A DNA stretch of 64,000 bases from a virus, in the IMG/VR virus record IMGVR_UViG_3300003937_000247; one strand, 5' to 3'. Both the position numbers and the translations under genes were made by a program. This document shows positions 2,238 through 61,559 of this stretch, one piece after another (positions within the stretch are counted from its first letter, which is position 1; every line of letters begins with the position of its first letter). Below the pieces are notes generated by a model. That model made no database searches. It was not told where the DNA came from and was given only the letters and a program-made list of their open reading frames with translations.

Positions 2238-2252
2238 GTTCTCATTTTGTTC
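2238..2252 (+). promoter_or_regulatory. GTTC-N7-GTTC direct repeat, alphaproteobacterial LexA (SOS) box-like
   Basis: gttc-tcatttt-gttc, intergenic; the 18-mer atgttctcattttgttct recurs at 54356. Confidence 0.65.
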
Positions 2253-2318
2253 TATATAGCGCAATCTGACACACCCTAAAAACCCTTGTTTCCTGCGAAG
2301 GAATAATCCATTATTCGC

Positions 2319-2347
2319 TTGAATTTTATACCAATCTGTAGTAGCAT
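2319..2347 (+). promoter_or_regulatory. sigma70-type early promoter
   Basis: ttgaat-17bp-tagcat; -10 region paralogous to the promoter at 4580. Confidence 0.6.
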
Positions 2348-2357
2348 AGCAGTATAA

Positions 2358-4550
2358 ATGACAAAAGACACTATGAAAAATAAGTCGCAACTTGCAAAAT
2401 TACTTGCTACTGAAAATATTGAAGTACAAGAAAATGCTGTAAAGACTGCTTCCTTTGATGTCAAAAATAGAATTTTAACAGTTCCTATATTTAAAGAGGA
2501 ACACAAATCAAAACACGTATATGATATGTTAGTTGGACACGAAGTTGCCCACGCTTTACATACACCATCAGATTCTTGGGAATCTATGGGGAATAGAAAA
2601 CAAGAATTTAGATCATTTGTAAATGTTATTGAAGACGCTAGAATTGATAAACTTATACAGAAAAAATATCCTGGTCTTGTTAATGACTATCTAAAAGGTT
2701 TTGATAAAATGTACAAAGATAATTTCTTTGGTACTAATAAAAAAGATGTAATGACTTATGCGTTGATTGATAAAATCAACCTATACTATAAGTCTTCAAA
2801 AAGATTAAATTTCAATTTTACTAAAAAAGAAAATTACTTTGTTAAGGCTGTTGATGATTGTAAATCTTTTGATGATGTATTAAAACTTGCTGAAGATATA
2901 TTAGGTCATTGTAAAGAAGAATTAAAGAAAAATCCAGTAATTAAAAAAACATACGTACCTATTATTAAGAAAAAAGAAGGCGAAGATAAAAAAGATGATA
3001 ATTCATCTACTTCAATGCCAGGTAATGATGAAGATAAAAAAGATAATAATGAGAGTAAAGATAAATTACAAGAATGGTTAGATAAAAAAGATCAGGAAGA
3101 AAATCCTAGTCCTAAACCAAAAGATAATAATGATAATAAAGATGATAGTAAAGATGATAAAAACGGTGAAGTTGGAAATGATGGCGCTGGCGGCGAACCT
3201 GCTCCAGTATTAAGATCAGTAACCAATGAACAATATGATACCGCTATCAAAGGAATTACAGATGATAAAAGTAGAGATAGAAGTTATTGTGAATTACCAA
3301 AAGTTAATCTTAAAAAATTAATTGTTCCTTGGGATAAATTAATTAGAGATGTTATGGTTTATGATCATAAGAATCACAATACAGATTATGATAGAGAAAA
3401 TCTTAATAAGGCAAAAATTAAAACACAACAATTTATAAAAGAATCTTCAAACGTTGTAAACTATCTTGTTAAAGAATTTGAAATGAAAAAAAATGCCAAG
3501 TTATATGCTCGTCAATCACAGGATAAAACAGGTGTTATTGACCCATTAAAATTACATAGTTATAAATTTGCTGAAGATATATTTAAAAAGATTACTACTG
3601 TACCAAATCAAAAAAATCACGGTATGATTTTATTACTTGATTGGTCTGGTTCAATGCAAAAACATTTACTACCAACAGTTGAACAGTTATTAAATTTAAC
3701 TTTGTTCTGTAAAAAAATTAATATACCATTTTCAGTTTATGCGTTTATGAATAACCACGATAGTTATCATAGAAAAGATAGATATGAAAACTCTGGGTTT
3801 TCAGTTACACCTAAATCACTACTACCAGACGCTAGTACAAAATTAGTACACTTGTTTAGTCATAAACAATCTAAAGTTGACTATATGAGAGTTGCTCAAA
3901 TAATTCATAGGGCTGCTTTATATTTTAATAGTCATTACAATTGGAGAAGTCCAGAAACAGATAAAGTTCCTAGTATGCCTAGTGAGTATTATCTATCATC
4001 AACACCTCTTAATGAGTCGTTGATTGCAATGGATCATATTATTAAAAAATTTAAGAACGATTATAGAACAGATAAAGTTGCTTTAGTAACTCTTACTGAT
4101 GGTGCTTCAAACTCAATGCACAAACACAACCCTGGTGAGATATGGTTAAAACTTAATAACAAGTATATAAATGCTGATAGTTATTGGGGAGATAAAAATG
4201 ATTTAACAAGTGTTATGTTAAGATATTTAAAAAGAAAATACGATTTACAAACTATTGGGTTTTACCTAGTATCAAAATATAGAGAGTTAAGATATCAAAT
4301 TAGAGTGCCTTACGAAAAAGAAATATTGGCTAGAAAAATGTTTAGTAAAGATAAGTTTATTGCTGACTACAGTACTTCTTATGATGTTTACTTTTATGTT
4401 AATTCTGGCACTAGAGTTTCAAATAAAGTAATGGACGATTCAATAGATACAACTAATAAGAGAATATTAAAAAAGATGTTTATGTCAGGAATGAAAAAAA
4501 GAATCAATTCCAGAGTATTATTACAAAATTTTATTAAGAGGATCGCATAA
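2358..4550 (+). CDS. CobT-like VWA-domain protein with HExxH metallopeptidase-like N-terminus (partner of MoxR/CobS ATPase)
   Basis: GHEVAHALH; MIDAS LDWSGS...T...LTDG; acidic low-complexity linker; adjacent to AAA ATPase. Confidence 0.8.
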   Translation: MTKDTMKNKSQLAKLLATENIEVQENAVKTASFDVKNRILTVPIFKEEHKSKHVYDMLVGHEVAHALHTPSDSWESMGNRKQEFRSFVNVIEDARIDKLIQKKYPGLVNDYLKGFDKMYKDNFFGTNKKDVMTYALIDKINLYYKSSKRLNFNFTKKENYFVKAVDDCKSFDDVLKLAEDILGHCKEELKKNPVIKKTYVPIIKKKEGEDKKDDNSSTSMPGNDEDKKDNNESKDKLQEWLDKKDQEENPSPKPKDNNDNKDDSKDDKNGEVGNDGAGGEPAPVLRSVTNEQYDTAIKGITDDKSRDRSYCELPKVNLKKLIVPWDKLIRDVMVYDHKNHNTDYDRENLNKAKIKTQQFIKESSNVVNYLVKEFEMKKNAKLYARQSQDKTGVIDPLKLHSYKFAEDIFKKITTVPNQKNHGMILLLDWSGSMQKHLLPTVEQLLNLTLFCKKINIPFSVYAFMNNHDSYHRKDRYENSGFSVTPKSLLPDASTKLVHLFSHKQSKVDYMRVAQIIHRAALYFNSHYNWRSPETDKVPSMPSEYYLSSTPLNESLIAMDHIIKKFKNDYRTDKVALVTLTDGASNSMHKHNPGEIWLKLNNKYINADSYWGDKNDLTSVMLRYLKRKYDLQTIGFYLVSKYRELRYQIRVPYEKEILARKMFSKDKFIADYSTSYDVYFYVNSGTRVSNKVMDDSIDTTNKRILKKMFMSGMKKRINSRVLLQNFIKRIA

Positions 4551-4579
4551 AAATGAGGGTTTATAACGCTTTTTTGTGC

Positions 4580-4608
4580 TTGACTTCTAATGAAAACAAT
4601 GATAGCAT
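4580..4608 (+). promoter_or_regulatory. sigma70-type early promoter
   Basis: ttgact-17bp-tagcat preceded by aacgcttttttgtgc, as at 54418. Confidence 0.7.
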
Positions 4609-4640
4609 AGCTGTATAACTTAAATGAAAGGACTTATATA

Positions 4641-5843
4641 ATGATTGAGTTATCAAAAACACAAAAATCCGTACTTCAAGTATTGAAAGATACTTACAAA
4701 AAAGATACGGTGACTAGGGCACAAATAAATGCTCTTGTTAAAAAGAAGGTAATCAAAAATCCTTCTTGGTTAAAATCAGACAAGTTTAAAGTCGGTAGAG
4801 GAGTTTACACTCTTGTTATTGACAATACTGTTGATGATACAACCACAGTAGAACACGTTGATGTGAAACCTACTGATACAAAGGCTGCTTATATAGTTAG
4901 TTCGCTAACTGATAATGTAGTTCCTACTAAAGATAAAAACTTTGTAAATTTCGGAAACTTTTCAGATGTTAAAAATATAATAACTTCTAAAAAATTCTAT
5001 CCTGCATTTATCACAGGTCTTTCAGGTAACGGTAAAACTCTTGCTGTAACCCAGGCGTGTGCTGTTGCAAAAAGGGAGATGATTAGAGTTAACGTAACAA
5101 TTGAAACTGATGAGGATGATTTACTTGGCGGTTATAGATTAAGAAACGGTGAAACTGTTTGGCAAAACGGACCAGTTATTGAGGCGATGGAAAGAGGCGC
5201 TGTTCTTTTACTTGATGAGATAGACCTTGCAAGTAATAAGATAATGTGTTTACAACCTATCCTTGAAGGTTCAGGAATCTATGTTAAGAAAATTAACAAG
5301 TTTGTTAAACCTAAATTTGGTTTCAATGTGATTGCAACTGCTAATACTAAAGGACAAGGTAGTGATGACGGTAAGTTTATCGGTACTAATGTTTTGAACG
5401 AGGCATTCCTTGAAAGATTTCCAGTTACATTTGAACAACAATATCCTTCTGCTAAAACAGAAGAAAAAATTGTTTCTAATTCTTTGCAAACTGCAGGAAA
5501 AAGAGATCAAAAATTTGCTCACAATTTAGTTACTTGGGCTGACGTTATAAGAAAAACTTATAATGATGGCGGTGTTGATGAGATTATATCAACAAGAAGA
5601 TTAGTACACATTGCTGAGGCATATGGAATCTTTAAAAATAAAATGAAGGCAATCGCTGTCTGTACAAATAGATTTGATGATGATACTAAAACATCATTTG
5701 TTGACCTGTACACTAAAGTTGATAGTGGTGCTTCAGTAGAACAGATTCTTGCTGATAAGAAAAAGGCTGAAGAAGCTGAAATATTATCAGAAAAAGAATC
5801 CGATGATAGTGAGGATGATAGTGAAGAAGACTTTACTGTCTAA
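4641..5843 (+). CDS. cobS: CobS-like MoxR-family AAA+ ATPase
   Basis: Walker A GLSGNGKT, Walker B LLLDEID, ATANTKG, NEAFLERF, STRRL; typical of marine T4-like phages. Confidence 0.88.
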   Translation: MIELSKTQKSVLQVLKDTYKKDTVTRAQINALVKKKVIKNPSWLKSDKFKVGRGVYTLVIDNTVDDTTTVEHVDVKPTDTKAAYIVSSLTDNVVPTKDKNFVNFGNFSDVKNIITSKKFYPAFITGLSGNGKTLAVTQACAVAKREMIRVNVTIETDEDDLLGGYRLRNGETVWQNGPVIEAMERGAVLLLDEIDLASNKIMCLQPILEGSGIYVKKINKFVKPKFGFNVIATANTKGQGSDDGKFIGTNVLNEAFLERFPVTFEQQYPSAKTEEKIVSNSLQTAGKRDQKFAHNLVTWADVIRKTYNDGGVDEIISTRRLVHIAEAYGIFKNKMKAIAVCTNRFDDDTKTSFVDLYTKVDSGASVEQILADKKKAEEAEILSEKESDDSEDDSEEDFTV

Positions 5844-5865
5844 ATCTATCCATAGTGTAAGTCCG

Positions 5866-5894
5866 CTTGTGGCCAGAAATGGCCACAAGTTTTC
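5866..5894 (+). terminator. rho-independent terminator
   Basis: cttgtggcca-gaaa-tggccacaag followed by tttt. Confidence 0.8.
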
Positions 5895-5909
5895 TTACAA
5901 GGAGGGACA

Positions 5910-6044
5910 ATGAAAAAAGAAAATAAAAGAAATAAATTAGAAAGATTTTTAGATAGACATAACCATACAATGGAATTAATTAGAACAATACTTCCAATTG
6001 TATTGTTAATTATGCAAACAATAATTATGATAAAGATATTTTAA
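5910..6044 (+). CDS. small membrane protein (not in ORF track)
   Basis: aggagg RBS; MKKENKRNKLERFLDRHNHTMELIRTILPIVLLIMQTIIMIKIF. Confidence 0.55.
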   Translation: MKKENKRNKLERFLDRHNHTMELIRTILPIVLLIMQTIIMIKIF

Positions 6045-6045
6045 T

Positions 6046-6312
6046 ATGAAGAAAGAAACCGTAGAAGAATTTGTAGCAAGAGGTGGTAAGATTCAAAAAT
6101 TAAGACCTGGATCTGCTGCTAAATTAGGCAGTTTAGATAAGTCTAAAAAACCACAATGGGATGCTGACGAAATTAAAAAAGGAAAAACAGGTACAGCACC
6201 TATACCTGATTATTCAAATACTAAACCTAATACATACCACGATTATGATTTAGGTGGAGATAAGATACCAGTTTATGAACCAACAAAGAAAAACGGAGGT
6301 GAAAGTAAGTGA
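6046..6312 (+). CDS. hypothetical protein
   Basis: ORF with EEFVARGGKIQKL motif, coupled to rpsU. Confidence 0.6.
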   Translation: MKKETVEEFVARGGKIQKLRPGSAAKLGSLDKSKKPQWDADEIKKGKTGTAPIPDYSNTKPNTYHDYDLGGDKIPVYEPTKKNGGESK

Positions 6313-6551
6313 GTATTACAGTTGAAGTAAGAGGTGGTAACCTTGAAAAAGCTATGCGTGTATTGAAGAAGAAGATTCAAAAATCAGGCTTAATGGCTGA
6401 GGTAAGAGATAGAAGATATTACAAGAAACCATCTGAAATTAAACGTGAAAAAGCCAAAGAACGATCTAAACTTTTAAGAAAAGCACAAAAACTTAATGAT
6501 GAAACTTTAGGTTATAAGTGGGTTAAAGGGAAAAAAGTAAGAAAAATTTAA
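6309..6551 (+). CDS. rpsU: ribosomal protein bS21
   Basis: GTG start after ggagg; ITVEVRGGNLEKAMRVLKKK...RRYYKKPSEIKR matches the S21 pattern. Confidence 0.92.
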   Translation: MSITVEVRGGNLEKAMRVLKKKIQKSGLMAEVRDRRYYKKPSEIKREKAKERSKLLRKAQKLNDETLGYKWVKGKKVRKI

Positions 6552-6615
6552 GGAATTCTATGCCGTCTGTGTTGAATATTATATATATTATTACTATAAG
6601 GCCATTCGTAAGACC

Positions 6616-9988: not shown

Positions 9989-10064
9989 GCTGCTTTAGCT
10001 CAGCTGGTAGAGCAACTGATTTGTAATCAGTAGGTCCGCGGTTCAAGTCCGTGAAGCAGCACCA
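9989..10064 (+). tRNA. tRNA-Thr(UGU)
   Basis: Acceptor gctgctt/aagcagc plus encoded ACCA, D arm gctc/gagc, anticodon arm actga-tttgtaa-tcagt, T loop gttcaag. Confidence 0.96.
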
Positions 10065-15753: not shown

Positions 15754-17058
15754 ATGATGAAGTACCTAAATGATTATGCAGATGTAAATAAATTACCCAT
15801 AATGGATCAACAAACGTTTGAAACTATTACAAACGATATTGGTAAAGAACAATTTAGATTAGATTTAGCACAATACATTGCAGACAATAGACCAAAGTTT
15901 CCTTTAAAGGAGATTTCGTTTGAAGCAATGCGTCAAGCATTTAAAAGTTTACAGAAACAAGACGTATGGGAATATGTAAAACCCATAGAACAAATACATA
16001 AAAATGTAAAAGAAAAATATGACGATTACAAATACACTTTTAAAAAACACGGTCTTGGTATTATAGACGCACCATCTTTATACAATGACGTATCAAATTA
16101 TTTTCATCAACATTTAAGATTAAACTGTTCAAGTTATAGTTTTAAATCACCATTAGATGTATGGTATAATGGTACAGCGAAAGATATATGGAGATGTTTA
16201 GGTCCTATGTGGCGTGGTATTAATGGAATGAAACCAGTTACAGTTGGAGATAAAACAGAATTAAGAGGTGGCAGATTAGATGATAAGAGTTATGTATCTG
16301 CTTTTAGATTACAGACATATATTGCAACACAATTTAAACCTAATGTTGCGAAGACAATATATCAAATGACAAATGCTAAAAGAGTATTAGATACATCTTG
16401 TGGTTGGGGTGATAGACTTGCAGGTTTTTTTGCTAGTGACGCTGAAGAATATATAGGTTGTGATCCTAATCCAAATACTTACAAACAATATTTAAAACAA
16501 ATAGAAACATATAACAGTTTTCTAACTAGACCTAAAAAGGTAACAATATATAATTGTGGCGCTGAAGATTTACCTTGGAATGAAATTGATAATATAGATT
16601 GTGCCTTTACAAGTCCACCTTATTTTTCTACTGAAAGATATAATGAGGGTGGTGAAAAAGAAGAAAATCAATCTTGGAAAAAATTTGATGAATATTTTAA
16701 ATGGCGTGATGATTTTTATTTACCTGTATCACAGAAAAGTTTTGAGAGATCAAAACATACATTTATTAATATAATGGACCCTACAATAAAAGGTAAAAGA
16801 TATTATAGTTGTGATGAATTAGTTGGTAGTTTAAAGGATAACTTTGTAGGTCAAATAGGAATGAGAATTATGCAAAGACCTAAATCAGATAAGTTATTTG
16901 AAAATGAAGAAGAAAAAAAAGAGTTTATGAATCGTACTTACATTGAAAATATATGGTGTTTTTCAAAACCAGAAAAACAAAATCCTAATCATTTTCAATC
17001 CAATTTTCAGGAAAAATTAGATTACTTTAGGCACAGCAGAAGGGCAACGTTATTTTAA
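15754..17058 (+). CDS. DNA amino-methyltransferase (SPPY type)
   Basis: TQFKP, LDTSCGWGDR, GCDPN, FTSPPYF; same family as 1145..2230. Confidence 0.85.
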   Translation: MMKYLNDYADVNKLPIMDQQTFETITNDIGKEQFRLDLAQYIADNRPKFPLKEISFEAMRQAFKSLQKQDVWEYVKPIEQIHKNVKEKYDDYKYTFKKHGLGIIDAPSLYNDVSNYFHQHLRLNCSSYSFKSPLDVWYNGTAKDIWRCLGPMWRGINGMKPVTVGDKTELRGGRLDDKSYVSAFRLQTYIATQFKPNVAKTIYQMTNAKRVLDTSCGWGDRLAGFFASDAEEYIGCDPNPNTYKQYLKQIETYNSFLTRPKKVTIYNCGAEDLPWNEIDNIDCAFTSPPYFSTERYNEGGEKEENQSWKKFDEYFKWRDDFYLPVSQKSFERSKHTFINIMDPTIKGKRYYSCDELVGSLKDNFVGQIGMRIMQRPKSDKLFENEEEKKEFMNRTYIENIWCFSKPEKQNPNHFQSNFQEKLDYFRHSRRATLF

Positions 17059-33906: not shown

Positions 33907-34332
33907 ATGAAAACATTTAAACAACATATAAAAGAAGATGGTAAGATGGTTGGCACAGCCACATCTAACGCAGTTGAAGATGGTTCTATTGGTGTTCATA
34001 ACATCCATGAACCTGCAATTTTGAATAAAGTAAATGCTTTTGTTGGCTCTATTGCTAATGGAGAATACATCAAACCTGAGGCTGCTCTTAATCAATTAAG
34101 TGCAAAATTAAGTACAATTGGTGTGACAGTAAAAGATAAAATTGAAATTAAAGATAAAAAGGGTAACTTTGAAAGTGCATTAGTTTATGCTGGAGGCCGT
34201 TTCGGAAAAGATACTGACGGTTCTGATTTAAATGATGATGGTATATCTCATAAAGGTAATAGTATAAAACTAAAAGGTAATTACGAAACATTAAAGAACG
34301 GCGCTGTTAAAGTTTATGCAGAGCTTGGCTAA
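33907..34332 (+). CDS. hypothetical protein with capsid-targeting-like N-terminus
   Basis: MKTFKQHIKE. Confidence 0.65.
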   Translation: MKTFKQHIKEDGKMVGTATSNAVEDGSIGVHNIHEPAILNKVNAFVGSIANGEYIKPEAALNQLSAKLSTIGVTVKDKIEIKDKKGNFESALVYAGGRFGKDTDGSDLNDDGISHKGNSIKLKGNYETLKNGAVKVYAELG

Positions 34333-41051: not shown

Positions 41052-41690
41052 TTGGCTATTCAGTTTTTTATTCTAATGAAAAAAAATATAATTAAAAAAG
41101 ATAAAACTTTATTATTATTAATTGAGTTTGAAGGCGTTCCAGAAGCACAAGCCGACAATCTACTTGATGAGATTAGGTATAGTTATCTAAAAAGATTACT
41201 ATTTGAGCACCCAGCAACTTCTTTACTTATTCTATCAGACCACCGAAGAGCAAATACTAGAATAGCCGCAATATTAGATCATTTACAAGATAGTAGAAGA
41301 ACACATACACATTCCATTGTGAATATTACACCAATCAAAACAACAATGGAAGATATCTACTCTATAGCAGATGTCCAAGGTTATAATATTCAGAATGTTA
41401 TTGTAGCAGGTTGTAATACAACAGGTTGTGTCTTTGAATCTATGCCTTATTCAGCAGTAAAATGGGCTCAAGCAGGCCATTTTGTACAGATAGTATTACC
41501 AATGTGTGGTGACGCTGACATACACGGTATAGGTCCTGAAAAATATATAAGATCATTTGCTCGTTTATATAAAAAAATTAAAAAGGCTAATGTTTTTAAA
41601 AATGTTGAAATAGTAAGTGAACTTCATACTGTGTTGCATTTTAATAATGGTGTGCAATCTAACAGATTTGATATAGAACCTAAAATTTAA
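41052..41690 (+). CDS. isochorismatase-like hypothetical protein
   Basis: VIVAGCNTTGCV resembles the cysteine hydrolase motif; start uncertain. Confidence 0.45.
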   Translation: MAIQFFILMKKNIIKKDKTLLLLIEFEGVPEAQADNLLDEIRYSYLKRLLFEHPATSLLILSDHRRANTRIAAILDHLQDSRRTHTHSIVNITPIKTTMEDIYSIADVQGYNIQNVIVAGCNTTGCVFESMPYSAVKWAQAGHFVQIVLPMCGDADIHGIGPEKYIRSFARLYKKIKKANVFKNVEIVSELHTVLHFNNGVQSNRFDIEPKI

Positions 41691-43317
41691 TAGTATAGAC
41701 GTTTATAGGTTCTTCTTTACCTTTTACTTTAATCTCATCAATATATTTAAAATTAAATCTTTCAAATAAAGGTTCTCTAGTATTTTCAGATATAACAATA
41801 TCTTGTCCTAAAGTTTTACTTGAACTTTCCAATCTACTTGCTAAATTAACAGCGTCTCCTATTACTGAATAATCAAACCTTTGTTCAGACCCCATATTAC
41901 CTACAAGACATTGACCAGTATTGATACCTATACCTATGTTTAAAGGTGGATCAAACTCTTTAGTTTTATTCATTAATGCTAGTTTTTGTTTCATCTCTTT
42001 AGCAGATTTAACTGCCATCTCTCTATGATTTTTACAATCTAATGGTGCGTTCCAAAATGCCATAATACAATCACCCATATACTTGTCTATTGTCCCTTCA
42101 TTTTTTAATATAATATTTGTCATTGCAGTTAGAAACTTATTAACATAACGAGTAAGTTGTTCAGGATTATCTTTAAACCTTTCCGATATAGGAGTAAAAC
42201 CTCTAATATCTGAAAATAAAAATGTTAATTCTTTTCTTTCCCCACCTAGTTTTAATAGAGAAGGATCTTTTTGTAATTTTTTAACCATACCAGGTGCAAG
42301 GTAATGCTCAAATTGTTTTTTGATTTGTAGTTTTAATCTATTCTCTCTAGCAAAATTATTATAGATTAAATGAGACCATATAATACTTCCTATAATCATA
42401 GGAGTTATCCAATCAACCATTATCATATGTTGAGTCCATAGATAACCACTTGCAAGTGCTATATCAAAATAGAAACCTACTAAACATAATGCAGACCATA
42501 GTAATCCTAATCTAGGCATTATAATCAAAAGGAATAATAAAGCAATTATAGTTATTCCTATTTCACTTATATACAACCAATTAGGTCTTGTAATAAACTT
42601 ACCAGACAATAAAGTTTCTGTTGACAATGCCATTATTTCGTGTGTGTTTTTTAAACCGTTTGGAGTAAGAACGAAAGTAGAACCTTTAAAGGTTGTTCCA
42701 ATAAAAACTATTTTACCCTTCATAGATGACCAATCTTTATCAGTATAATCTATTCTAGGTATCTGGTGTCTGAAATCAATCCAAATATCGTCTTGGTTAG
42801 GTATTGGAAATTTAATGACTTTCAGTATAACACTTGGGACGGATTTGTCAAGCGGTAATTTTCTAATAGTACCATCAATATCAATAGGCACTTCTACATT
42901 TCCTACAGCAAGTGCTTTTCTCTCTATACTTTTTAGGTTTTTTGCTTGACTTGTTTCAGTTAATATGATAGGGTACTTGGTAATCATCTTCAAAAACATT
43001 TCATCACCACCTAATCTATCTTTATGTACAAAGACTACATTTAAGAAGACTAGAGCTGCACCATTTTTATATGCGTTGATTATAGTACGACCTAATAAAT
43101 CTCTTTTCCAAGGCCATTGACCAGATTTAACTAAAGCTTCATCCGAAATATCCAGGAGTACTAGACTTTTGGATTCGTAGTTATTCCCAAAATTTTGATA
43201 ATTATCTAAAGCAGAAAGTCTTGTTTTTTGTATCAATACAGGATTAGAAATATAGATTATAATCAATATTAAAGCAATCATCCATACAGACCATTTATTA
43301 GTTAGCAGTTTTATCAT
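41680..43317 (-). CDS. CHASE2-domain class III adenylate cyclase
   Basis: N-terminal TM, GQWPW.R and D.DG.IR (CHASE2), three TMs, FSDIRGFT, DKYMGD, GIGINTG, DYSVIGDAVNLASRLES; Lys/Asp pair indicates ATP specificity. Confidence 0.93.
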   Translation of the reverse strand: MIKLLTNKWSVWMIALILIIIYISNPVLIQKTRLSALDNYQNFGNNYESKSLVLLDISDEALVKSGQWPWKRDLLGRTIINAYKNGAALVFLNVVFVHKDRLGGDEMFLKMITKYPIILTETSQAKNLKSIERKALAVGNVEVPIDIDGTIRKLPLDKSVPSVILKVIKFPIPNQDDIWIDFRHQIPRIDYTDKDWSSMKGKIVFIGTTFKGSTFVLTPNGLKNTHEIMALSTETLLSGKFITRPNWLYISEIGITIIALLFLLIIMPRLGLLWSALCLVGFYFDIALASGYLWTQHMIMVDWITPMIIGSIIWSHLIYNNFARENRLKLQIKKQFEHYLAPGMVKKLQKDPSLLKLGGERKELTFLFSDIRGFTPISERFKDNPEQLTRYVNKFLTAMTNIILKNEGTIDKYMGDCIMAFWNAPLDCKNHREMAVKSAKEMKQKLALMNKTKEFDPPLNIGIGINTGQCLVGNMGSEQRFDYSVIGDAVNLASRLESSSKTLGQDIVISENTREPLFERFNFKYIDEIKVKGKEEPINVYTIKF

Positions 43318-53838: not shown

Positions 53839-54355
53839 TTATAGTTTAAGTAGTCCTGCAATTTGTATTTGTAAAGGACAATTTAAGTTTAAAAACTGTA
53901 AGATATATTATTTAACAAATGTGAAAAAATATGAAGGTAATTTTTATAATGGACAGATAAATGGCAGACTACATTTACCCTATACCTCCCAGACACAACG
54001 ACACGACCAAATTTCAGATTGGGCGCTTTCTATTATTGATACTGCTATTGGTAATATTTTTATAGAAGGTTACTCATTTGGAAGTAAAGGACTTGTATTC
54101 AACCTAGCAGAGAATATGGGTGCTCTCAAACATAAACTATACAAACTCAATAAACGATTTGATATGATAGTGCCAGGTAGAATTAAAAAGAACGCTACAG
54201 GCAAAGGTAATGCAGACAAACTTAAAATGTATGAGCAGTTTGTAAAAGATACTAATATTGATTTAATGAAAGAATTTGATCAGACAAAACTCAACAATCC
54301 AGTTACAGACATAGTTGACTCGTATTATATCACAAAATATGGGTCAGAATCATAG
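53786..54355 (+). CDS. RuvC-like (RNase H fold) nuclease
   Basis: GIDYS, FIEGY, KK.ATGKGNADK, D..DS. Confidence 0.75.
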   Translation: MRMRYLMMKTKTKIVGIDYSLSSPAICICKGQFKFKNCKIYYLTNVKKYEGNFYNGQINGRLHLPYTSQTQRHDQISDWALSIIDTAIGNIFIEGYSFGSKGLVFNLAENMGALKHKLYKLNKRFDMIVPGRIKKNATGKGNADKLKMYEQFVKDTNIDLMKEFDQTKLNNPVTDIVDSYYITKYGSES

Positions 54356-54357
54356 AT

Positions 54358-54372
54358 GTTCTCATTTTGTTC
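54358..54372 (+). promoter_or_regulatory. GTTC-N7-GTTC LexA box-like element
   Basis: gttc-tcatttt-gttc, intergenic, 45 bp upstream of a -35. Confidence 0.65.
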
Positions 54373-54417
54373 TTATAATTATTCCTAAAAACCTAGTAAA
54401 ATCAACGCTTTTTGTGC

Positions 54418-54446
54418 TTGACTTTCTTATGTTTTTAGTGTATTAT
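54418..54446 (+). promoter_or_regulatory. sigma70-type early promoter
   Basis: aaaatcaacgctttttgtgc-ttgact-17bp-tattat. Confidence 0.7.
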
Positions 54447-54456
54447 ATACGTATAA

Positions 54457-54876
54457 ATGATAAAAAACACTATGAAAAAACAAGTTTCCAAAGAATTATT
54501 AGAACATCTTAAACAGATGAACATCAAATCCCAAAAGTGGGTTGATGAAGACCCAAAACATAGATGGTCTTCAATGATTACAGAAGACCCAAAACATTGG
54601 GCAAATTACAAAATTTACACCCTAAAAGAATTTAAACATTATATGGCTGAATCTACACATTGGGATTTATACAAATCTATCAATGGAGTAAGACCTAGAT
54701 TTATGCAATATCATTTAATGACTACAGAAGAAATTGAAGCAGAAAATGACGCTATGTTCAAAGAACAAGAAGAACAAATTGCTGCTGAAAAAAAAGAGAA
54801 AGAAGATACTATAAAAAGAGTATCACAATACGGTAATTTTACCGAAAAACAATTAGAGAAATGGAGAGTAATATAA
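54457..54876 (+). CDS. hypothetical early protein
   Basis: D.YK..NGVRPR motif; first gene after the promoter. Confidence 0.65.
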   Translation: MIKNTMKKQVSKELLEHLKQMNIKSQKWVDEDPKHRWSSMITEDPKHWANYKIYTLKEFKHYMAESTHWDLYKSINGVRPRFMQYHLMTTEEIEAENDAMFKEQEEQIAAEKKEKEDTIKRVSQYGNFTEKQLEKWRVI

Positions 54877-54877
54877 T

Positions 54878-55321
54878 ATGAGTTTAGATACAAACATACA
54901 TCCTTTTAAAGAGGATTTAGGAAAGAACCTATACAGAAAGAAAACTTACTACACCTTATGTGTAGAACAAGAAGTATTGGCAAAAAATAAAGATGACGCT
55001 GATAATAAATTTATGGACGGTGGTGGAATAAACCATTCAAACATTGGTAGAGATTTAACAGATGAAAATCAAGGTGTTGAAACCTATATGGTAGACGCCA
55101 ACTATACAGATTCAGGTGATACTGAATATGTTGCTAAAGTTTGTTATGAAGATGATGAATTTGCTAAAGAAGATGGTTTTGTAGAATTAGATACCTATGC
55201 TTTAGAAGATGACATAATCAACGAAAAGGGAGATTGTGTTGCTAAAGAAAAAGAAATTAAACCTTTAGACGATTTAAAAAAAATTGTTGATGAACACAAA
55301 CCAATTAAGGCAATATTATAA
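54878..55321 (+). CDS. acidic hypothetical protein
   Basis: Coupled ORF. Confidence 0.6.
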   Translation: MSLDTNIHPFKEDLGKNLYRKKTYYTLCVEQEVLAKNKDDADNKFMDGGGINHSNIGRDLTDENQGVETYMVDANYTDSGDTEYVAKVCYEDDEFAKEDGFVELDTYALEDDIINEKGDCVAKEKEIKPLDDLKKIVDEHKPIKAIL

Positions 55322-55518
55322 TGATTGAAATATTAAAATTTATAGAAGAACTAGAACTATTACATAAAATGCTTACTGTTGACAATTCAATAGATGATGA
55401 CCCAAGGAAGATTTTTACTAGAGGTAAAATTAGAGAATTGCTTGCGAAGTATAAAAAAATAGAGTCAGATTTTGACATTCATTTAAATTTAGAAAATGAA
55501 AGTAAGTTAGGAAAATAG
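55321..55518 (+). CDS. hypothetical protein
   Basis: Coupled ORF. Confidence 0.5.
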   Translation: MIEILKFIEELELLHKMLTVDNSIDDDPRKIFTRGKIRELLAKYKKIESDFDIHLNLENESKLGK

Positions 55519-55612
55519 TGAAATTAGGGGGATACAATCATACACAGACAGCTCTTAAACCGTCCCAGGAGGCGGCTATGAGAGGATTATTCCACGGAAA
55601 TATGAGGAAACA

Positions 55613-56035
55613 ATGAGAAACGGATATTTTGCAGTTGTATTGAATAAAGAGAGCTGTGATGCTGTGAGGAAATATTCCACGATGGAAGATGTAAAAGGAG
55701 ACCATATTACACTTGCATATAAACCAGATGATAAAACTTATGAACAGTTAAACGGATTGGTTAATGAGGATGTTGACGCTTATATTAGTGAGATAAGATC
55801 AAATAAAAATATAGAAGCATTGTGGGTTGACGAAATGAACTTAACTAGATTTCCATCAATAAAATTAAAAAGATTTAATCCAGGCCCAGCACACGTTACA
55901 ATATCACATAAGAAAGATTTTAAATCTGGTGACGCAAATAGTATGTTTAAAGATCCAGACCACCTTGTTCCAGTAGACCATACACACGAATTGGGATATT
56001 TGAAAGGTACAGTTAAATGGATATCATATGAGTGA
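55613..56035 (+). CDS. 2H phosphoesterase-fold protein
   Basis: Two HxT motifs (DHITL, AHVTI) about 63 aa apart in 140 aa. Confidence 0.7.
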   Translation: MRNGYFAVVLNKESCDAVRKYSTMEDVKGDHITLAYKPDDKTYEQLNGLVNEDVDAYISEIRSNKNIEALWVDEMNLTRFPSIKLKRFNPGPAHVTISHKKDFKSGDANSMFKDPDHLVPVDHTHELGYLKGTVKWISYE

Positions 56036-56169
56036 AAAAATAAAAGAATTACAAAAAGAAGTTAAAGAGTTGGAAGAAGAAAAAAAGATTACCAATTCTC
56101 AAGCAAGAATTAATGATATAGATGAGAGTATCTATAATACAAATCAAAGTATTGAAGAATTGAGGAAAT

Positions 56170-56619
56170 ATGAAAGACATTGATATGAAAACAGAAGCAC
56201 CAGAATTATACATTAATGGTATGGAGACTTTACCAGATGTAATTAATATGATTAAAGATACAATGGATGAAGGTAAAACTGAATCTGCTAAAGATTACTT
56301 AAATCAATTACAAGAATATTTAGCAAAAAGAGATATCAATATTTTAGAATTACAGGAGACAGGTGAAAAAATATTACAAGGACTTGAAAAAAATACAGAA
56401 ATTTTAGACCCACAACAAACAGTAGTTGATAATTTCCACGAGTGGAATATGAAACAAATGGATAGATATGAACCTGTTATGGTACTAATGACAATTTTAG
56501 GACAAACGTTGAAGATTATGAAATCGGCAATGCCTAAACACCAATACGATTCAATTATGGACAACGTCTATGAGTCGAAGGACAGAATTGAACCGTTTAC
56601 TAAACCACAAATACATTAA
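56170..56619 (+). CDS. hypothetical protein
   Basis: ORF track; RBS gagg. Confidence 0.6.
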   Translation: MKDIDMKTEAPELYINGMETLPDVINMIKDTMDEGKTESAKDYLNQLQEYLAKRDINILELQETGEKILQGLEKNTEILDPQQTVVDNFHEWNMKQMDRYEPVMVLMTILGQTLKIMKSAMPKHQYDSIMDNVYESKDRIEPFTKPQIH

Positions 56620-56628
56620 TGGAGGAAA

Positions 56629-56835
56629 ATGAAAACTTTAATGTCAATATTAGTATTAATCTGTTTAACAGTTAGTGCTAACGCAAATCCAGTATTGAAC
56701 TGGTTTGAAACTGAAAAAAACAAAACAATTGAGTTTCAAAAGAAATCGTGGGCTGATGGCAAAGTGCAATTAGCAAACACAAAACAATCTATTATAGACC
56801 TATTTCACAAGGTAACTAATGTTACACAGGATTAG
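56629..56835 (+). CDS. small exported protein
   Basis: Signal peptide ending ANA; ggagg RBS. Confidence 0.6.
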   Translation: MKTLMSILVLICLTVSANANPVLNWFETEKNKTIEFQKKSWADGKVQLANTKQSIIDLFHKVTNVTQD

Positions 56836-57010
56836 TGATTTCTGTAAAAAGATTGATAGTATCAAAGCCCAGGCGGATAAGTTGTATAATTTAAAGTATA
56901 ACAACACTAAAACGCCTGGTCGGGATGCTGAGATTAACCATTTAATAGAAGATATACAATCAACGTGTAAAATCGTTGGTGCAGATAAGACACCCTATCA
57001 AAAAGGTTGA
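56819..57010 (+). CDS. hypothetical protein
   Basis: Coupled ORF. Confidence 0.5.
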   Translation: MLHRISDFCKKIDSIKAQADKLYNLKYNNTKTPGRDAEINHLIEDIQSTCKIVGADKTPYQKG

Positions 57011-57061: not shown

Positions 57062-57073
57062 ATATTACATACA

Positions 57074-57493
57074 ATGAAAATAAGTGAGAAGGACGATACT
57101 ATGGTAACTAAAGAAGAAATATTTGAAGAATTTAAGATTGCAAAACAAAAAGACATTGCAAAATCAACAACAAAACCACCTTATGAGAACTGTTTTAAAA
57201 ACAGATTAAAGTTATTAAAATCTCATAGGGACGCAAAAATAACAAATCCAAAAGTGTACAGACATTTACAAGTAAATTTTGATAATCTAATACTTGCTTA
57301 TTCGTCACCTGTACCTATTGACGCATTCTATAAGACAGTATTCAATAAGACATTTACTCAATATAATGAGTCTAAAAGAGTTGAAGATATGACAGAATTA
57401 CAAAAAGAAAAAGATGAAAGACGTAGAAAAAAAGAAAAAGAAGAATTAAAGAAACAAAAAGCTGAAGATGTTAAAGAAATTACTATTAATTAG
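57074..57493 (+). CDS. hypothetical protein
   Basis: First ORF after the promoter. Confidence 0.6.
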   Translation: MKISEKDDTMVTKEEIFEEFKIAKQKDIAKSTTKPPYENCFKNRLKLLKSHRDAKITNPKVYRHLQVNFDNLILAYSSPVPIDAFYKTVFNKTFTQYNESKRVEDMTELQKEKDERRRKKEKEELKKQKAEDVKEITIN

Positions 57494-57959
57494 TTGTTTG
57501 TTGTTACTTACAAATTGTGCCAGTAAGCAGTCTTATATAGGTGCTAGCACCACCGCAGCTGTTGCTGGTACAGCGTGTTGGCAGTATATAAGTGACAATC
57601 CTGCAGTTGTGGCGACTTGTGCTGTTGTAGGTTCATTTAAAGGTGCCGATATGATGAATAGTGAAACGGATGATCAATTAATGACAAGAGCATTTGTGGA
57701 TCATTTAGACAATGCACCTAATAGTCCAGGTTTTACAACGTGGATGAATCCTAAAACAAATAGTAATGGTATAATTAAAACTACAGGTTTCTATTTAAAG
57801 GGACCTATTAAATGTTCAATGGTTGAAGTTACACATAATCAGAATTTAGATAATACAAGATTTTTTGATTCAATATTATATGGAAATCCATATAGACAAA
57901 TACAATTACACGAAGTTTGTAAAATGCCCGATGGAAGGTGGATGATGATAAATGATTAA
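57468..57959 (+). CDS. 17-kDa surface-antigen-like lipoprotein
   Basis: Lipobox LTNC, small-residue zipper, W.NP.T...G and C..PDG.W C-terminal domain. Confidence 0.7.
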   Translation: MLKKLLLISCLLLLTNCASKQSYIGASTTAAVAGTACWQYISDNPAVVATCAVVGSFKGADMMNSETDDQLMTRAFVDHLDNAPNSPGFTTWMNPKTNSNGIIKTTGFYLKGPIKCSMVEVTHNQNLDNTRFFDSILYGNPYRQIQLHEVCKMPDGRWMMIND

Positions 57960-58413
57960 AAATATTATAATTTTTGTACTGTTATTAATTTGTGTATCAC
58001 AATGTGGTGGTAACGATACGAAAGCAAAACAAATAGAATTAAAAGCAATGGATAACTTTTTTGATAAACTATTGCAAAATGCAACACCAATACCTTTAGT
58101 AGATAAACAATGTTTGAAATATGAAGATTGTCCTAAATGGGATGGTAATCCAGATACTAAAATGTATTATGACCTAATGAAAGGTCTTAACGGCTCTGGG
58201 AAGATTGAAAAATCAGACTTCAATTGGAATGTTCATCTATATCTATGCCACCAAAATAAGTTGTTGGATAGTATAAACGGTGAAGGTGCATTTGAAAGAC
58301 TTGCAATCATTTCAGCAAAAGACGGAATGATACCTTGTCCTATAGATAACAATCCACATTGGAATTATGATTGGGAAAATCATATATTAAAAGCTAGAGC
58401 GGAGGCAGTATGA
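57952..58413 (+). CDS. exported hypothetical protein
   Basis: Hydrophobic N-terminus with Cys. Confidence 0.55.
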   Translation: MIKNIIIFVLLLICVSQCGGNDTKAKQIELKAMDNFFDKLLQNATPIPLVDKQCLKYEDCPKWDGNPDTKMYYDLMKGLNGSGKIEKSDFNWNVHLYLCHQNKLLDSINGEGAFERLAIISAKDGMIPCPIDNNPHWNYDWENHILKARAEAV

Positions 58414-58835
58414 TGAATAATAATTTTAAAAGAATTGTTATGTTTACATTTACAATTATAGCACTATTATTAATATGTAATATATTATACGCTGAAGATT
58501 CATTTGAAAACACAATTAAAAAAATAAACATATTAGAAAATGGAAACAATGAAGTCACTTATGATAAAATACAACCTTTAAAAGACCAGTATTGTTTCAT
58601 AAAAGTAAAAATTACAGAAGTTGATGGTGAAATCATCAAAGAAGAAGTTGTTGAATGTGCCGATGGTAGAAAGGCGTATGATGGACCAAGTTATTGGGAG
58701 TTATTCGCTATGTTTTATTATGGTGATATGAATACACCTGCCTATTGTAGGCATTATGAACGACCTAAACACGCATACCATAAACCTGGTAAAGTATGTT
58801 TAGACAAAAATGGAAACTGGGAGGTAAAAAAATAA
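58410..58835 (+). CDS. exported Cys-containing hypothetical protein
   Basis: Signal peptide; C...NG.W C-terminus similar to the 57468 protein. Confidence 0.6.
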   Translation: MMNNNFKRIVMFTFTIIALLLICNILYAEDSFENTIKKINILENGNNEVTYDKIQPLKDQYCFIKVKITEVDGEIIKEEVVECADGRKAYDGPSYWELFAMFYYGDMNTPAYCRHYERPKHAYHKPGKVCLDKNGNWEVKK

Positions 58836-58996
58836 TGATAAAAGGTATAATAACCCTAGTAGTACTATGGATAATCATAGCTTTTACTTGGGATCCATTT
58901 GTATCAACAGTTGAGAAAACACAGGCTGTTGACAAAACTAAGGAATTAGTGTATAATGTGTTTAATAAAGCGAAGGAGAAAGTGAAAAATGAGTAA
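58835..58996 (+). CDS. small membrane protein
   Basis: TM helix; contains ttgaca(58929)-17-tataat promoter for the next gene. Confidence 0.5.
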   Translation: MIKGIITLVVLWIIIAFTWDPFVSTVEKTQAVDKTKELVYNVFNKAKEKVKNE

Positions 58997-59597
58997 AGTA
59001 CTCAAATATATAATAATTGGTTTATTAAGTGTCACGCTTGCAAATTGTTCAAGCAATACTTATAAAATCAAAAAAGAAAGCAAGAATCAGGTACTAAAAG
59101 TTCCTTCTTGGTATATGAAAGACTATTCCGAGAATAAAGAATGTGGTACTAAAATGTTCGGCAAAAAGAAAGACAAAAAATGTGTCTTCGGTGTCGGAAC
59201 TTCTACATCACCTGACCTAGAATTGGCAATTGACAAGGCGACAATGATCGCTAAGGCTGAAGTTGCTGATAAGATAAAAGGGGAGATGAATAAGAAGGCA
59301 AAGATTTTTACTACCGAGTTAGGTAAATCTCAAACCAAAACTGTTGTAACAGATGTTGAAACAACTATAGTAAACATTATTAAGAATACACCAGTACGTG
59401 GTTATGAAGTATTTAAGCAAGAGGTAACTTTAACGAAAAATGGTTACTACCGTGCTTGGATAGGATTAAGATTGCCTATGGGACCATACAACAAGATGTA
59501 CAATTATTCTTTAGAAGAAATAGTTGACGCTTACAAGTTAAAAGAACTTGCTGAAAAATCGTATGATGAAGTAGAGATAATTGCTAATGAGCAGTAA
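58989..59597 (+). CDS. LPP20-like lipoprotein
   Basis: Lipobox LANC, VPSWY, G.G.S.DLELAIDKA...AK. Confidence 0.7.
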   Translation: MSKVLKYIIIGLLSVTLANCSSNTYKIKKESKNQVLKVPSWYMKDYSENKECGTKMFGKKKDKKCVFGVGTSTSPDLELAIDKATMIAKAEVADKIKGEMNKKAKIFTTELGKSQTKTVVTDVETTIVNIIKNTPVRGYEVFKQEVTLTKNGYYRAWIGLRLPMGPYNKMYNYSLEEIVDAYKLKELAEKSYDEVEIIANEQ

Positions 59598-59856
59598 AAT
59601 CCAAATATACTCAAAGCCTAATTGTACTTATTGTACAAAATCAAAACACTTGATGAAAACGTTAGGCTTTGAATACGAAGAACATATGTTTGGGAAAGAT
59701 TTTACTACACCTGAACAGTTATTTGAGGCAATAGGTAAACAAGTACGAACTATGCCTCAAATTGTTATAGAAGATAAACATATCGGCGGCTATAACGAAT
59801 TAATAGAGTATTTTGCCGATAAGAAGTTAGTAAATTACAAAGGTGAAAAAATATAA
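59587..59856 (+). CDS. nrdC: glutaredoxin
   Basis: YSKPNCTYC, RTMPQI, HIGGY. Confidence 0.92.
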   Translation: MSSKIQIYSKPNCTYCTKSKHLMKTLGFEYEEHMFGKDFTTPEQLFEAIGKQVRTMPQIVIEDKHIGGYNELIEYFADKKLVNYKGEKI

Positions 59857-60268
59857 TATGAGTGATGATGGACAATTAGAATTTGATTTTGGGTTAGAAT
59901 CTAAAATACCCGATAATGTAATATTATTTCCTAAAATACCTTTACGAAGACCTAATTGGGCACAACAAAAATTAGACGCTAAAAAACAAGATATGTTGAG
60001 AAGACAACACAATCAGGTTTACGTACAGGCCATTACAGAACAATTAACTGAACAGATGTTATTAAGATTAAGAGAAGAAAACATTAACATAACAACAAAA
60101 GAATTTTTAAGTGACTATAAGTTGTCACTAGAGGCGCTTAAGTCTATGTTGCTTAGGGCAGTACATATGAAACACCCATTACAACAACGTGTAGATAGGG
60201 CGGTCAAATGTAAACAAGGAGAAGGTAAGGACGTATATGCCATTACCATTGACTATAACAAATTTTAA
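59843..60268 (+). CDS. hypothetical protein
   Basis: DNVILFP and HPLQ motifs. Confidence 0.65.
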   Translation: MKKYNMSDDGQLEFDFGLESKIPDNVILFPKIPLRRPNWAQQKLDAKKQDMLRRQHNQVYVQAITEQLTEQMLLRLREENINITTKEFLSDYKLSLEALKSMLLRAVHMKHPLQQRVDRAVKCKQGEGKDVYAITIDYNKF

Positions 60269-60505
60269 ATTAGATAACAATATGCGTAACATTTATATAA
60301 TTGCAAATATATTAATCTGTCTGGCTGAACATAGTTTAAGAGGACTAAACGCATGGACAAGGAGGGTTATGGGCGAATGCCTGAAGACACCTTGGGCAGT
60401 TTTGAGTAGGGACCTATCTTGCAATAGATGGACTCTTCCTGGAAGATTGTGGGTGAGTTCCAACAAATCCCACGACAGACACATATTGTTATCTAATTTA
60501 AAATT
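60261..60505. repeat. perfect 24-bp inverted repeat enclosing a structured RNA
   Basis: aattttaaattagataacaatatg (60261-60284) / catattgttatctaatttaaaatt (60482-60505). Confidence 0.9.
60316..60479 (+). ncRNA. multi-stem structured ncRNA (possibly manA-motif class)
   Basis: GC-rich island; closing tctgtc/gacaga; stems tagttt/ggacta, caagg/ccttg, ggc-gaat-gcc, gagt/actc, gtggg/cccac; family assignment is from memory only. Confidence 0.65.
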
Positions 60506-60599
60506 ACAGAATTCCATAAAGCACTTTGGGATAATTGCTAGTACTGGCAAAGTTAGCAATTCTAATTATAATGCCACAATAGAAAAGGAGATTTAAACA

Positions 60600-60932
60600 A
60601 TGTTTAAATTTTTATTTAAAAACGACTCATTAAGAGTTGTATCAAAATCTAAAAGAAAATCTACTAGAGGTAGAAAAACTTTATCAAAAAGAGTTAAAGT
60701 TTTAAATCTTTTAAACAAAGGCGAATCTGTTACTTGGAAGACTTTAAGAAGCAGATTTGATCTAGTGTCTCCAAGAGCACTAGTTGACACATTGAGATCA
60801 GAAGGTAATATGATCTATGTTAACAAATCAGCAAAAGGAACATCTTATAGAATAGGTGAACCTACAAAAGCGATAATCGCTGCTGGGATCAAAAAATTAT
60901 ATGGTACTCCGTACGCATATAAAACTGCCTAA
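60600..60932 (+). CDS. winged helix-turn-helix DNA-binding protein
   Basis: Basic N-terminus; VLNLL..G..VTW.TL...F...SPRA.VD.LR.EG..I. Confidence 0.7.
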   Translation: MFKFLFKNDSLRVVSKSKRKSTRGRKTLSKRVKVLNLLNKGESVTWKTLRSRFDLVSPRALVDTLRSEGNMIYVNKSAKGTSYRIGEPTKAIIAAGIKKLYGTPYAYKTA

Positions 60933-60943
60933 TACTCATTGAG

Positions 60944-60982
60944 TATAAATAGAGGTATAGGGGTAGGGAGACTTACCCCTTT
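60944..60982 (+). promoter_or_regulatory. late promoter followed by terminator-like hairpin
   Basis: TATAAATA at 60944; aggggtag-ggaga-cttacccct-tt. Confidence 0.65.
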
Positions 60983-61008
60983 ACACATAACAAAATGAGG
61001 AGGCAAAT

Positions 61009-61497
61009 ATGCCAATGACATCCGCACAATTAAACGCAGGTATGGACACATCAGGATCAGGTGCTCCACTACTACACGAAATCTTACTAAAAGTAAACAA
61101 CGCAAAAGACAAATCCCAAAAAATTGAGGCTCTGAAAAAGAACGATTCAGTACCTTTAAGACAAATTTTAAAAGGTGCTTTTGATCCTAGTATCAAGTGG
61201 GATTTACCAGAAGGTACGCCACCATATAGAGAAAATGACGCACCAGCAGGTACAGAACACACGTCCCTATTTACAGAAGCCAAAAGATTATGGCACTTTG
61301 TAGAGGGAGCAGATAAGAAAACTTCCAGAACGAAGAAAGAAATGATGTTTATTCAATTGCTTGAAGGATTACACGCTAATGACGCTAAACTTATGATTTC
61401 AGTTAAAGAAAAAGAACTGAATCTCGTATATAAAGGGTTAACAGACGCTGTGGTTAAAGAAGCATTTGGATGGAATGCAGATTACAAAACATCCTAA
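61009..61497 (+). CDS. conserved marine T4-like hypothetical protein (DUF6433-like)
   Basis: FDP...W.LPEG.PPY, E.MFIQLLEGLH. Confidence 0.75.
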   Translation: MPMTSAQLNAGMDTSGSGAPLLHEILLKVNNAKDKSQKIEALKKNDSVPLRQILKGAFDPSIKWDLPEGTPPYRENDAPAGTEHTSLFTEAKRLWHFVEGADKKTSRTKKEMMFIQLLEGLHANDAKLMISVKEKELNLVYKGLTDAVVKEAFGWNADYKTS

Positions 61498-61544
61498 TAT
61501 AAATATTGTAGAGTGATTCTATAATATTTCAACTATAGGGTGTA

Positions 61545-61559
61545 GAACAAAAGTAGAAC
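61545..61559 (-). promoter_or_regulatory. GAAC-N7-GAAC LexA box-like element
   Basis: gaac-aaaagta-gaac, intergenic, 69 bp upstream of ttgatt(61629)-17-tatatt. Confidence 0.6.

Follow-up and report, generated by a model that had tools for sequence, protein, structure and literature searches.

Does a phage of the lytic T4-like type carry operators for the SOS repressor of its host, and which of its genes could they serve? This question is raised by a stretch of viral DNA of 64,000 nucleotides (nt), IMG/VR record IMGVR_UViG_3300003937_000247 (hereafter the window), in which the direct repeat GTTC-N7-GTTC is found between genes at three sites, upstream of early-type promoters. The window has a guanine-plus-cytosine (GC) content of 32% and shows patchwise nucleotide identity of about 78% to the Pelagibacter phages HTVC008M and Mosig; based on this likeness, the phage is classed as a T4-like lytic type (Kyanoviridae), a pelagimyophage with SAR11 as its likely host clade. 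SAR11 is the most abundant bacterial clade of the ocean and, to our knowledge, has few regulators, with regulatory links between phage and host being almost unknown. Phage LexA operators are well known from temperate phages, in which they link prophage induction to DNA damage. The reading that we favour, with a probability of roughly 0.55, is that the boxes are SAR11 LexA operators under selection in T4-like pelagimyophages, and that they would make a few early units SOS-responsive, with an effect that is most likely negative.

The boxes and the SOS operators of SAR11

A scan of the window revealed six copies of the bare motif GTTC-N7-GTTC, in comparison with 1.2 expected from dinucleotide shuffles. 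Three of them are intergenic (sites 1, 2 and 3), starting 7, 2 and 47 nt past the preceding stop codon and ending 64, 43 and 67 nt ahead of a GCTTGA-type −35 element, respectively. Sites 1 and 2 have 18 identical base pairs (bp) in common, ATGTTCTCATTTTGTTCT; on the strand that reads GAAC, these two sites correspond to AGAACAAAATGAGAACAT and site 3 to AGAACAAAAGTAGAACAT. The positions, intergenic placement and 18-bp identity of the three boxes, as well as the GCTTGA-type −35 element after each of them, had been reported in a preliminary description of the window made from its letters, and all were reproduced here. The three remaining copies are located in coding DNA (4055-4069, 33983-33997 and 42669-42683), score at most 15.2 bits on the host matrix described below, and are probably chance occurrences or weak sites. 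The 15-mer of the copy at 42669 recurs in Mosig at position 90683, where the corresponding 21-mer reaches 18.3 bits.

The SOS box of alphaproteobacteria is a GTTC-N7-GTTC direct repeat with an 11-bp period (PMC8565304), and SAR11 possesses a complete set of SOS genes (recA, lexA, umuDC) that are expressed together and are induced when another pelagiphage infects the cells (PMC12753301, PMC2864753). SAR11 genomes were reached through the SAR11-441R 16S probe sequence, with all the matches listed belonging to Pelagibacteraceae. LexA (TIGR00498) was found above the family cut-off in 53 of these 61 genomes, and RecA in 57. Upstream of lexA, the sequence AGAACTTTTRTAGAACA was present in all 35 SAR11 loci, 37-40 nt before the start codon, and was accompanied by a second box, inverted and partly degenerate, that abuts the ATG. 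The recA operator, AGAACAAAATGTGTACATT, was invariably flanked by a TTGCAA-type −35 and a TACATT-type −10 element (30/30 loci), and AGAACAAAAYAAGAACAT was present upstream of a umuD-like gene in each of 20 loci. The extended motif AGAAC-N7-GWACA occurs five to seven times per host genome of 1.3-1.4 Mb (three complete or near-complete genomes), and four of these occurrences are the lexA, recA and umuD-like operators. The core SOS regulon of SAR11 thus seems to be very small, with two boxes for lexA, one for recA and one for the umuD-like gene (loci L356-L440). The start codon directly adjoins the box at umuD and the second box at lexA, which suggests that the mRNAs of these genes are leaderless or have very short leaders.

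A position weight matrix (PWM) of 21 positions (19.3 bits) was derived from the four host operator classes only, with first-order Markov shuffles as the null. This host-only matrix ranked the three intergenic boxes (22.7-26.3 bits, Table 1) as the top three in the 128 kb of scanned strands, the next match reaching 15.8 bits; matches of at least 20 bits were expected 0.023 times per window and 0.05 times per genome. The host operators themselves scored between 12.0 and 26.3 bits, a range that includes the boxes of the window. Of 19 positions compared, site 1 shares 17 with the recA operator, which is invariant in SAR11, and both the flanks and the A4 spacer of the phage boxes agree with the recA and umuD operators. 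Among relatives of the phage, 41 distinct box 21-mers varied only at spacer positions 12-13 and in the outer flanks, which are uninformative in the host operators, a confinement to be read in the light of the fact that these 21-mers had been picked with the host PWM itself; some of them are identical to host umuD operators. A PhoB/OmpR-type site had also been considered, the box being two 7-bp repeats with a 4-bp spacer, and was dropped after the match to the host lexA, recA and umuD operators.

Altogether, the data indicate that the phage boxes are very probably LexA operators. The preliminary description had taken GTTC-N7-GTTC as the alphaproteobacterial LexA-type operator and held its number at promoters to be above chance. 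The first view is borne out by the match to host flanks and spacer, the persistence of the boxes in relatives and the failure to find a phage LexA; on the second, the counts and scores above make the three-box observation stronger than first stated.

Searches with LexA (TIGR00498) and the LexA DNA-binding domain (PF01726) yielded no homologue in the phage genomes G001, G002, HTVC008M and Mosig, and a hidden Markov model of SAR11 LexA found nothing in the six reading frames of the window. A phage-encoded LexA homologue was consequently rejected as the reader of the boxes. As none was present in the phage sequences examined, the LexA of the host is the likely reader and the only candidate identified, and we infer that it binds the phage boxes. 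It is very improbable that a phage protein reads them in its place, such as the winged-helix protein encoded at 60600-60932. This protein of 110 amino acids, with a basic disordered N-terminus (model pLDDT 64), has counterparts of at least 75% identity in 37 distinct relatives and lies just upstream of site 3, which would suit such a role. Its structural likeness, however, is weak and generic (NolR, ArsR and MarR types at E ~0.03), LexA was not among its 50 best structural matches, and the boxes replicate host operators to the base; it was rejected as a LexA-like reader. The usual targets of ArsR/MarR/NolR-type proteins are palindromes and not 11-bp direct repeats, which also counts against it. 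The palindromic stem-loop motifs found nearby are candidate sites for this protein.

Occurrence of the boxes in related phages

Upstream of the phrog_459 gene, the first one after site 1, the exact box was found in 47 out of 53 IMG/VR loci, down to a protein identity of 51%, and the six loci without it encode proteins with at most 37% identity. A LexA-type box proper to another host was looked for at the equivalent junction of distant relatives (27-37% identity), and only plain sigma70 promoters with nothing recognisable were observed. After the RuvC-like gene that precedes site 2, the exact box was present at a fixed offset and in either orientation (47 of 78 loci). Of 77 relatives, 38 have a box behind the DUF6433 gene, at the junction of site 3.

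Whole-genome scans, which are unbiased by the choice of loci, revealed four boxes of at least 20 bits in G001, a genome of 165.7 kb rated complete, and four in HTVC008M, along with one of 19.8 bits; complete relatives carry four to five boxes per 147-166 kb. Two boxes of at least 18 bits were found in Mosig, one of them ahead of its phrog_459 homologue. The boxes of HTVC008M are located at the junctions gp106|gp107 (a peptidase followed by CobS), gp164|gp165, gp170|gp171 and gp047|gp048, and one lies within gp032. Among 119 exact matches to AGAACAAAANNAGAACAT listed in IMG/VR, 75 are on pelagimyophage-like contigs. The extended A/T-rich box was also observed on viral contigs of high GC content (0.50-0.63; L475, L499, L519, L520, L524, L534 and others), where chance is unlikely; the probable source of these contigs is phages or prophages of other alphaproteobacteria, with LexA operators.

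Melnitz, a close relative, has a host outside the alphaproteobacteria, OM43 (PMC9004378). A PWM scan of its whole genome (MZ577097) detected no LexA-type box, with a maximum of 14.7 bits, and tblastn searches of this otherwise syntenic genome with the phrog_459, CobS-like and RuvC-like proteins of the window gave no match. The gene pair most steadily tied to the LexA box is thus missing from Melnitz together with the boxes. A switch to the beta/gamma-type box CTGT-N8-ACAG was also considered for this phage and rejected, as the six sites found, mostly coding, compare with 3.1 in the null (P = 0.09).

The number and strength of these sites bear on whether they regulate phage genes at all. The boxes might be decoys: carried on replicating phage DNA, they would bind up the few LexA molecules that so small a cell contains and thereby induce the host SOS regulon (recA, umuDC, lexA) in undamaged cells, with no regulation of phage genes. 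In line with such a function, they equal the best host operators in strength, each phage genome adds four to five sites to the approximately four core operators of the host genome, their variable distance and orientation to the promoter suit a position-independent function, and host SOS genes do rise during infection by another pelagiphage. We nevertheless regard titration as unlikely: more than four to five sites per genome would serve it better, even distant relatives have their sites at particular junctions, in front of the same genes, lexA autoregulation would offset the titration, and there is no clear benefit for a phage with its own RecA-like protein.

Promoters, stem-loops and the expected effect of LexA

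Promoters of the window were called by reading the sequence. About nine of them have the early-type form GCTTGA(C)-N17-TAnnnT, and three of these carry a box. At sites 1 and 2, the promoter and 5′ leader are duplicated (2317-2380 and 54416-54479). The order of elements is common to these cassettes: stop codon, box and/or GC-rich stem-loop, an A/T-rich element (CCTAAAAACCTAGTAAAATCAACG, in both orientations), the −35 and −10 elements and a short leader. CCTAAAAACCTAGTAAAATCAACG followed by a T-run also separates the box from the −35 element at many early promoters, with its TAAAATCAACGTTTTTA core in both orientations (e.g. L198, L162); this element may be bound by a second factor instead of acting as a plain UP element. 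A stem-loop directly upstream of a sigma70-type early promoter, repeated at the boundaries of variable regions and followed by genes that vary, is the arrangement of the cassettes described as PeSL (promoter-early stem-loop) in T4-like phages. A family of GC-rich stem-loops (GTGCGAnnTGACGCAC, GTGCGTCAGAATAGCAC and GGTGCATGACAGAATGTCGCACC) with the conserved loop core ACAGAAT recurs at operon boundaries, and is probably the stem-loop part of such PeSL-like cassettes.

The relation between box and hairpin was followed at two junctions. At the DUF6433 junction, the box occupies the loop of an inverted repeat that is preserved through compensatory changes (GGGTGT/ACACCC, GGGACGAGA/TCTTGTCCC, GGGAGTG/CACTCCC and GGGGTG/CACCCC). 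The hairpin is kept in all 39 relatives that lack the box, with 15-20 nt between its arms, and in 36 of the 38 relatives that have it, with 28-41 nt; since the loop is about 21 nt shorter in relatives without the box, the box behaves as an indel of ~21 bp. At the RuvC junction, a hairpin of the GTGCG...CGCAC type replaces the box in the relatives that lack it. A similar hairpin follows the box after 7 nt in HTVC008M and Mosig, and one of the boxes of G001 is preceded by a hairpin.

Two further readings concern the cassette. According to the first, the likeness to LexA operators is incidental, and the sequence is kept as part of a recombining terminator/promoter cassette, for instance as a T-rich terminator tract or as homology for recombination. 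The boxes do lie beside or within terminator-like hairpins, with a hairpin in place of the box at the RuvC junction of some relatives, sites 1 and 2 share a duplicated cassette, and the T-rich orientation is the commoner one relative to the genes (61 vs 33). This explanation appears extremely improbable, as it leaves the identity of 17-21 out of 21 positions to three different host operators unaccounted for, and variation limited to the positions uninformative in the host, the use of both orientations and the lack of boxes in the OM43 phage also speak against it. According to the second, the box could be a conditional insulator: host LexA bound to it, in or beside the terminator stem-loop, would block read-through, and perhaps upstream RNA polymerase contacts, into selected early units. 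Box and hairpin are interchangeable between relatives at the RuvC junction, which would fit an equivalent function of the two. The units would then open with the cleavage or decay of LexA over the long infection cycle in SAR11, or in cells damaged by ultraviolet (UV) light. We consider this a possible, albeit unlikely, function; if true, it would represent a delayed-early or damage-responsive class driven by a host protein in a T4-like phage that lacks MotA/AsiA.

Regarding position, the box centres are placed 53-77 bp before the start of the −35 element in the window (Table 1) and 18-96 bp before it in relatives, with 53-54 bp in 41 of 80 non-identical contexts. Further clusters were observed at 43-44, 74-78, 85-87 and 96 bp, together with off-phase spacings of 18, 49-50 and 59 bp. 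The overlap of the operator with the core promoter or transcription start that occlusion needs is therefore absent, and the earlier view that such upstream positions do not fit simple occlusion holds both in the window and in relatives. The idea that a promoter overlaps the box in the manner of host recA was discarded, as neither direction gave a convincing −35/−10 pair and box orientation differs from one relative to another.

This upstream location could instead suit a positive or architectural role, in which LexA bound upstream of the UP-like element stimulates early promoters in undamaged hosts, the units going down during the SOS response. The box centre is about 90-130 bp before the inferred start at most junctions, and the spacing clusters from 43-44 to 96 bp lie one helical turn apart; LexA of Rhodobacter sphaeroides reportedly has a dual role at recA, according to the title of a 2002 study by Tapias et al., cited in PMC6182141. 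We find such a role quite improbable in view of the off-phase spacings, of the occurrence of boxes in either orientation at equal offset and of the conservation of the same promoter in relatives without the box; moreover, the spacing clusters stem from related cassettes and not from independent events.

In the systems studied so far, LexA nearly always acts as a repressor, which makes a negative effect of the phage boxes the most likely one. In the SOS-responsive reading that we favour, the ~21-bp box is a module attached to a terminator-plus-early-promoter cassette of the PeSL type, placed where a conserved gene gives way to a block of early genes. Once the phage DNA has entered, host LexA dimers would occupy the four to five sites per genome and lower transcription at, or into, the adjacent units, either by interference just upstream of the UP-like element or as a roadblock at the terminator. 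Repression would be lifted by RecA-stimulated cleavage of LexA, triggered by UV damage, by other stress or by the infection itself. The units tuned in this way to the SOS state of the host would be the phrog_459/CobS pair, the operon of a SprT-like protease and the blocks of small early genes.

Several observations weigh against this proposal. The location of the boxes upstream of the −35 element and in either orientation is unusual for repression by LexA. At the RuvC and DUF6433 junctions, the box is missing from about half of the relatives, with the promoter kept and no other visible change, in box counts that are not phylogenetically independent among the relatives retrieved; the effect may consequently be small or conditional. 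In addition, the homologues of phrog_459, CobS and RuvC are missing from Melnitz, so that the comparison with this phage is genome-wide and not junction by junction.

The preliminary description went further in proposing that host LexA gates early transcription as a switch to dormancy or pseudolysogeny. This idea does not stand: only three of about nine early-type promoters of the window are boxed, which is not the pattern of a single regulator over the whole early or lytic programme. As the boxes are few (four to five per complete genome), often missing without other change at two junctions and well away from the core promoter, they can constitute neither a gate on the whole early programme nor a dormancy switch.

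Downstream units and comparison with known systems

The coordinates of boxes, promoters, hairpins and downstream units are shown in Table 1. The pair encoded after site 1 also follows a box in HTVC008M (gp107/gp108) and in Mosig. It had been described as a VWA/CobS operon; the second protein is indeed a CobS/MoxR-type AAA+ ATPase, and the VWA label of the first was confirmed neither by Pfam nor by a PDB sequence search, its family being annotated as 'peptidase' (phrog_459). SprT-like proteases are linked to the repair of DNA-protein crosslinks, and the presence of one in the unit after site 3 fits a damage-related logic, as a single gene among neighbours that for the most part have no known function.

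Table 1. Location of LexA-type boxes, promoters, stem-loops and box-associated units in the window and in related phages
Feature	Position	Strand	Details
LexA-type operator 1	2235..2255, core 2238-2252	(-)	minus strand reads ATAGAACAAAATGAGAACATT; 26.3 bits, best match of the window
Promoter TTGAAT-N17-TAGCAT	2319..2347	(+)	sigma70-type, after operator 1; box centre to −35 start 74 bp; repeat family D6, common to site 2
Unit after operator 1	2358..5843	(+)	phrog_459 'peptidase', then CobS/MoxR-like AAA+ ATPase
Weak GTTC-N7-GTTC match	42669..42683	(-)	within the CHASE2-cyclase gene; at most 15.2 bits
LexA-type operator 2	54355..54375, core 54358-54372	(-)	24.2 bits; 2 nt past the stop of the RuvC-like gene
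Conserved upstream element CCTAAAAACCTAGTAAAATCAACG	54384-54407	(+)	read from the sequence; element and spacing kept in relatives
Promoter TTGACT-N17-TATTAT	54418-54446	(+)	early type, after operator 2; box centre to −35 start 53 bp
Unit after operator 2	54457..57010	(+)	small early genes, no family match
Terminator-like hairpin	61534..61589, arms 61534-61543 and 61580-61589	(+)	operator 3 in the loop; followed by a T-rich tract
LexA-type operator 3	61542..61562, core 61545-61559 (GAAC-N7-GAAC)	(+)	GTAGAACAAAAGTAGAACATT; 22.7 bits
Promoter TTGATT-N17-TATATT	61629..61657	(+)	early type, after operator 3; box centre to −35 start 77 bp
Unit after operator 3	61699..63877	(+)	small genes, SprT-like metalloprotease 62187-62615, glucosaminidase 63185-63877
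GC-rich stem-loops	HTVC008M 87277-87300 and 133424-133447; Mosig, upstream of the phrog_459 gene; window 61567-61586		
HTVC008M boxes	87256, 133403, 134994, 30097; coding box 23257		whole-genome scan

Other features of the window were noted. The sole long minus-strand gene, at 41680-43317, codes for a fusion of CHASE2 sensor and class III adenylate/guanylate cyclase domains (each Pfam match at E ~1e-25), and its homologue in HTVC008M, gp019, adjoins curli-type csgF, csgG and csgB. A stretch of 45 nt with 82% identity is common to two genes (1798-1842 and 16581-16625), and the gene at 1145-2230 shows a weak, sub-threshold match to an N6/N4 DNA methyltransferase; the window may thus contain two related methyltransferase-like genes. 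A tRNA gene at 9989-10060 has 93% identity over 56 nt to the annotated tRNA-Thr of an unrelated phage record.

The literature on pelagimyophages, in which LexA goes unmentioned, reports no success in defining promoters other than the early ones predicted (PMC7029224). The present analysis adds a small conserved set of LexA operators of host grade in an obligately lytic phage type infecting SAR11, and defines the SAR11 SOS operator together with a minimal regulon (lexA, recA and a umuD-like gene). If LexA binds the boxes, part of the early programme would depend on the UV or stress state of the host, with a bearing on diel infection dynamics in surface waters; the sequences suggest, in this sense, a virus that senses or manipulates the SOS stress state of its host. 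The boxes may also provide a signal for host prediction in uncultured phages, as they are present in SAR11 myophages and were not found in the relative infecting OM43. Cultured pairs, HTVC008M or Mosig on HTCC1062, allow a direct test.

In comparison with the SOS boxes of host lexA, recA and umuDC, the phage boxes have the same GTTC-N7-GTTC repeat and 11-bp period, with flanks and A4 spacer alike. The host operators, on the other hand, overlap the promoter or abut the start codon, whereas the phage boxes stand 18-96 bp before the −35 element, in either orientation and beside hairpins. Phage GIL01, with its dinBoxes (gp7, gp6), and the CTX phage likewise use host LexA operators to couple phage transcription to the SOS response (PMC4551915, PMC6182141). 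These two phages are temperate, and LexA holds lysogeny from boxes inside promoters, aided by the phage protein gp7 or the LexA homologue gp6; in contrast, the phage type studied here is T4-like and lytic, no LexA homologue was found in the sequences examined, few early units are concerned, and the boxes are outside the core promoter. The closest architectural parallel is with PeSL cassettes, which have the same stem-loop terminator and sigma70 early promoter where variable early-gene blocks begin or end, and likewise show traces of cassette exchange (PMC2839356, PMC4122927). Published PeSL cassettes are not reported to hold a site for a host transcription factor, LexA being unmentioned in PMC4122927, whereas a subset of the cassettes described here carries an insertion of about 21 bp with a LexA operator.

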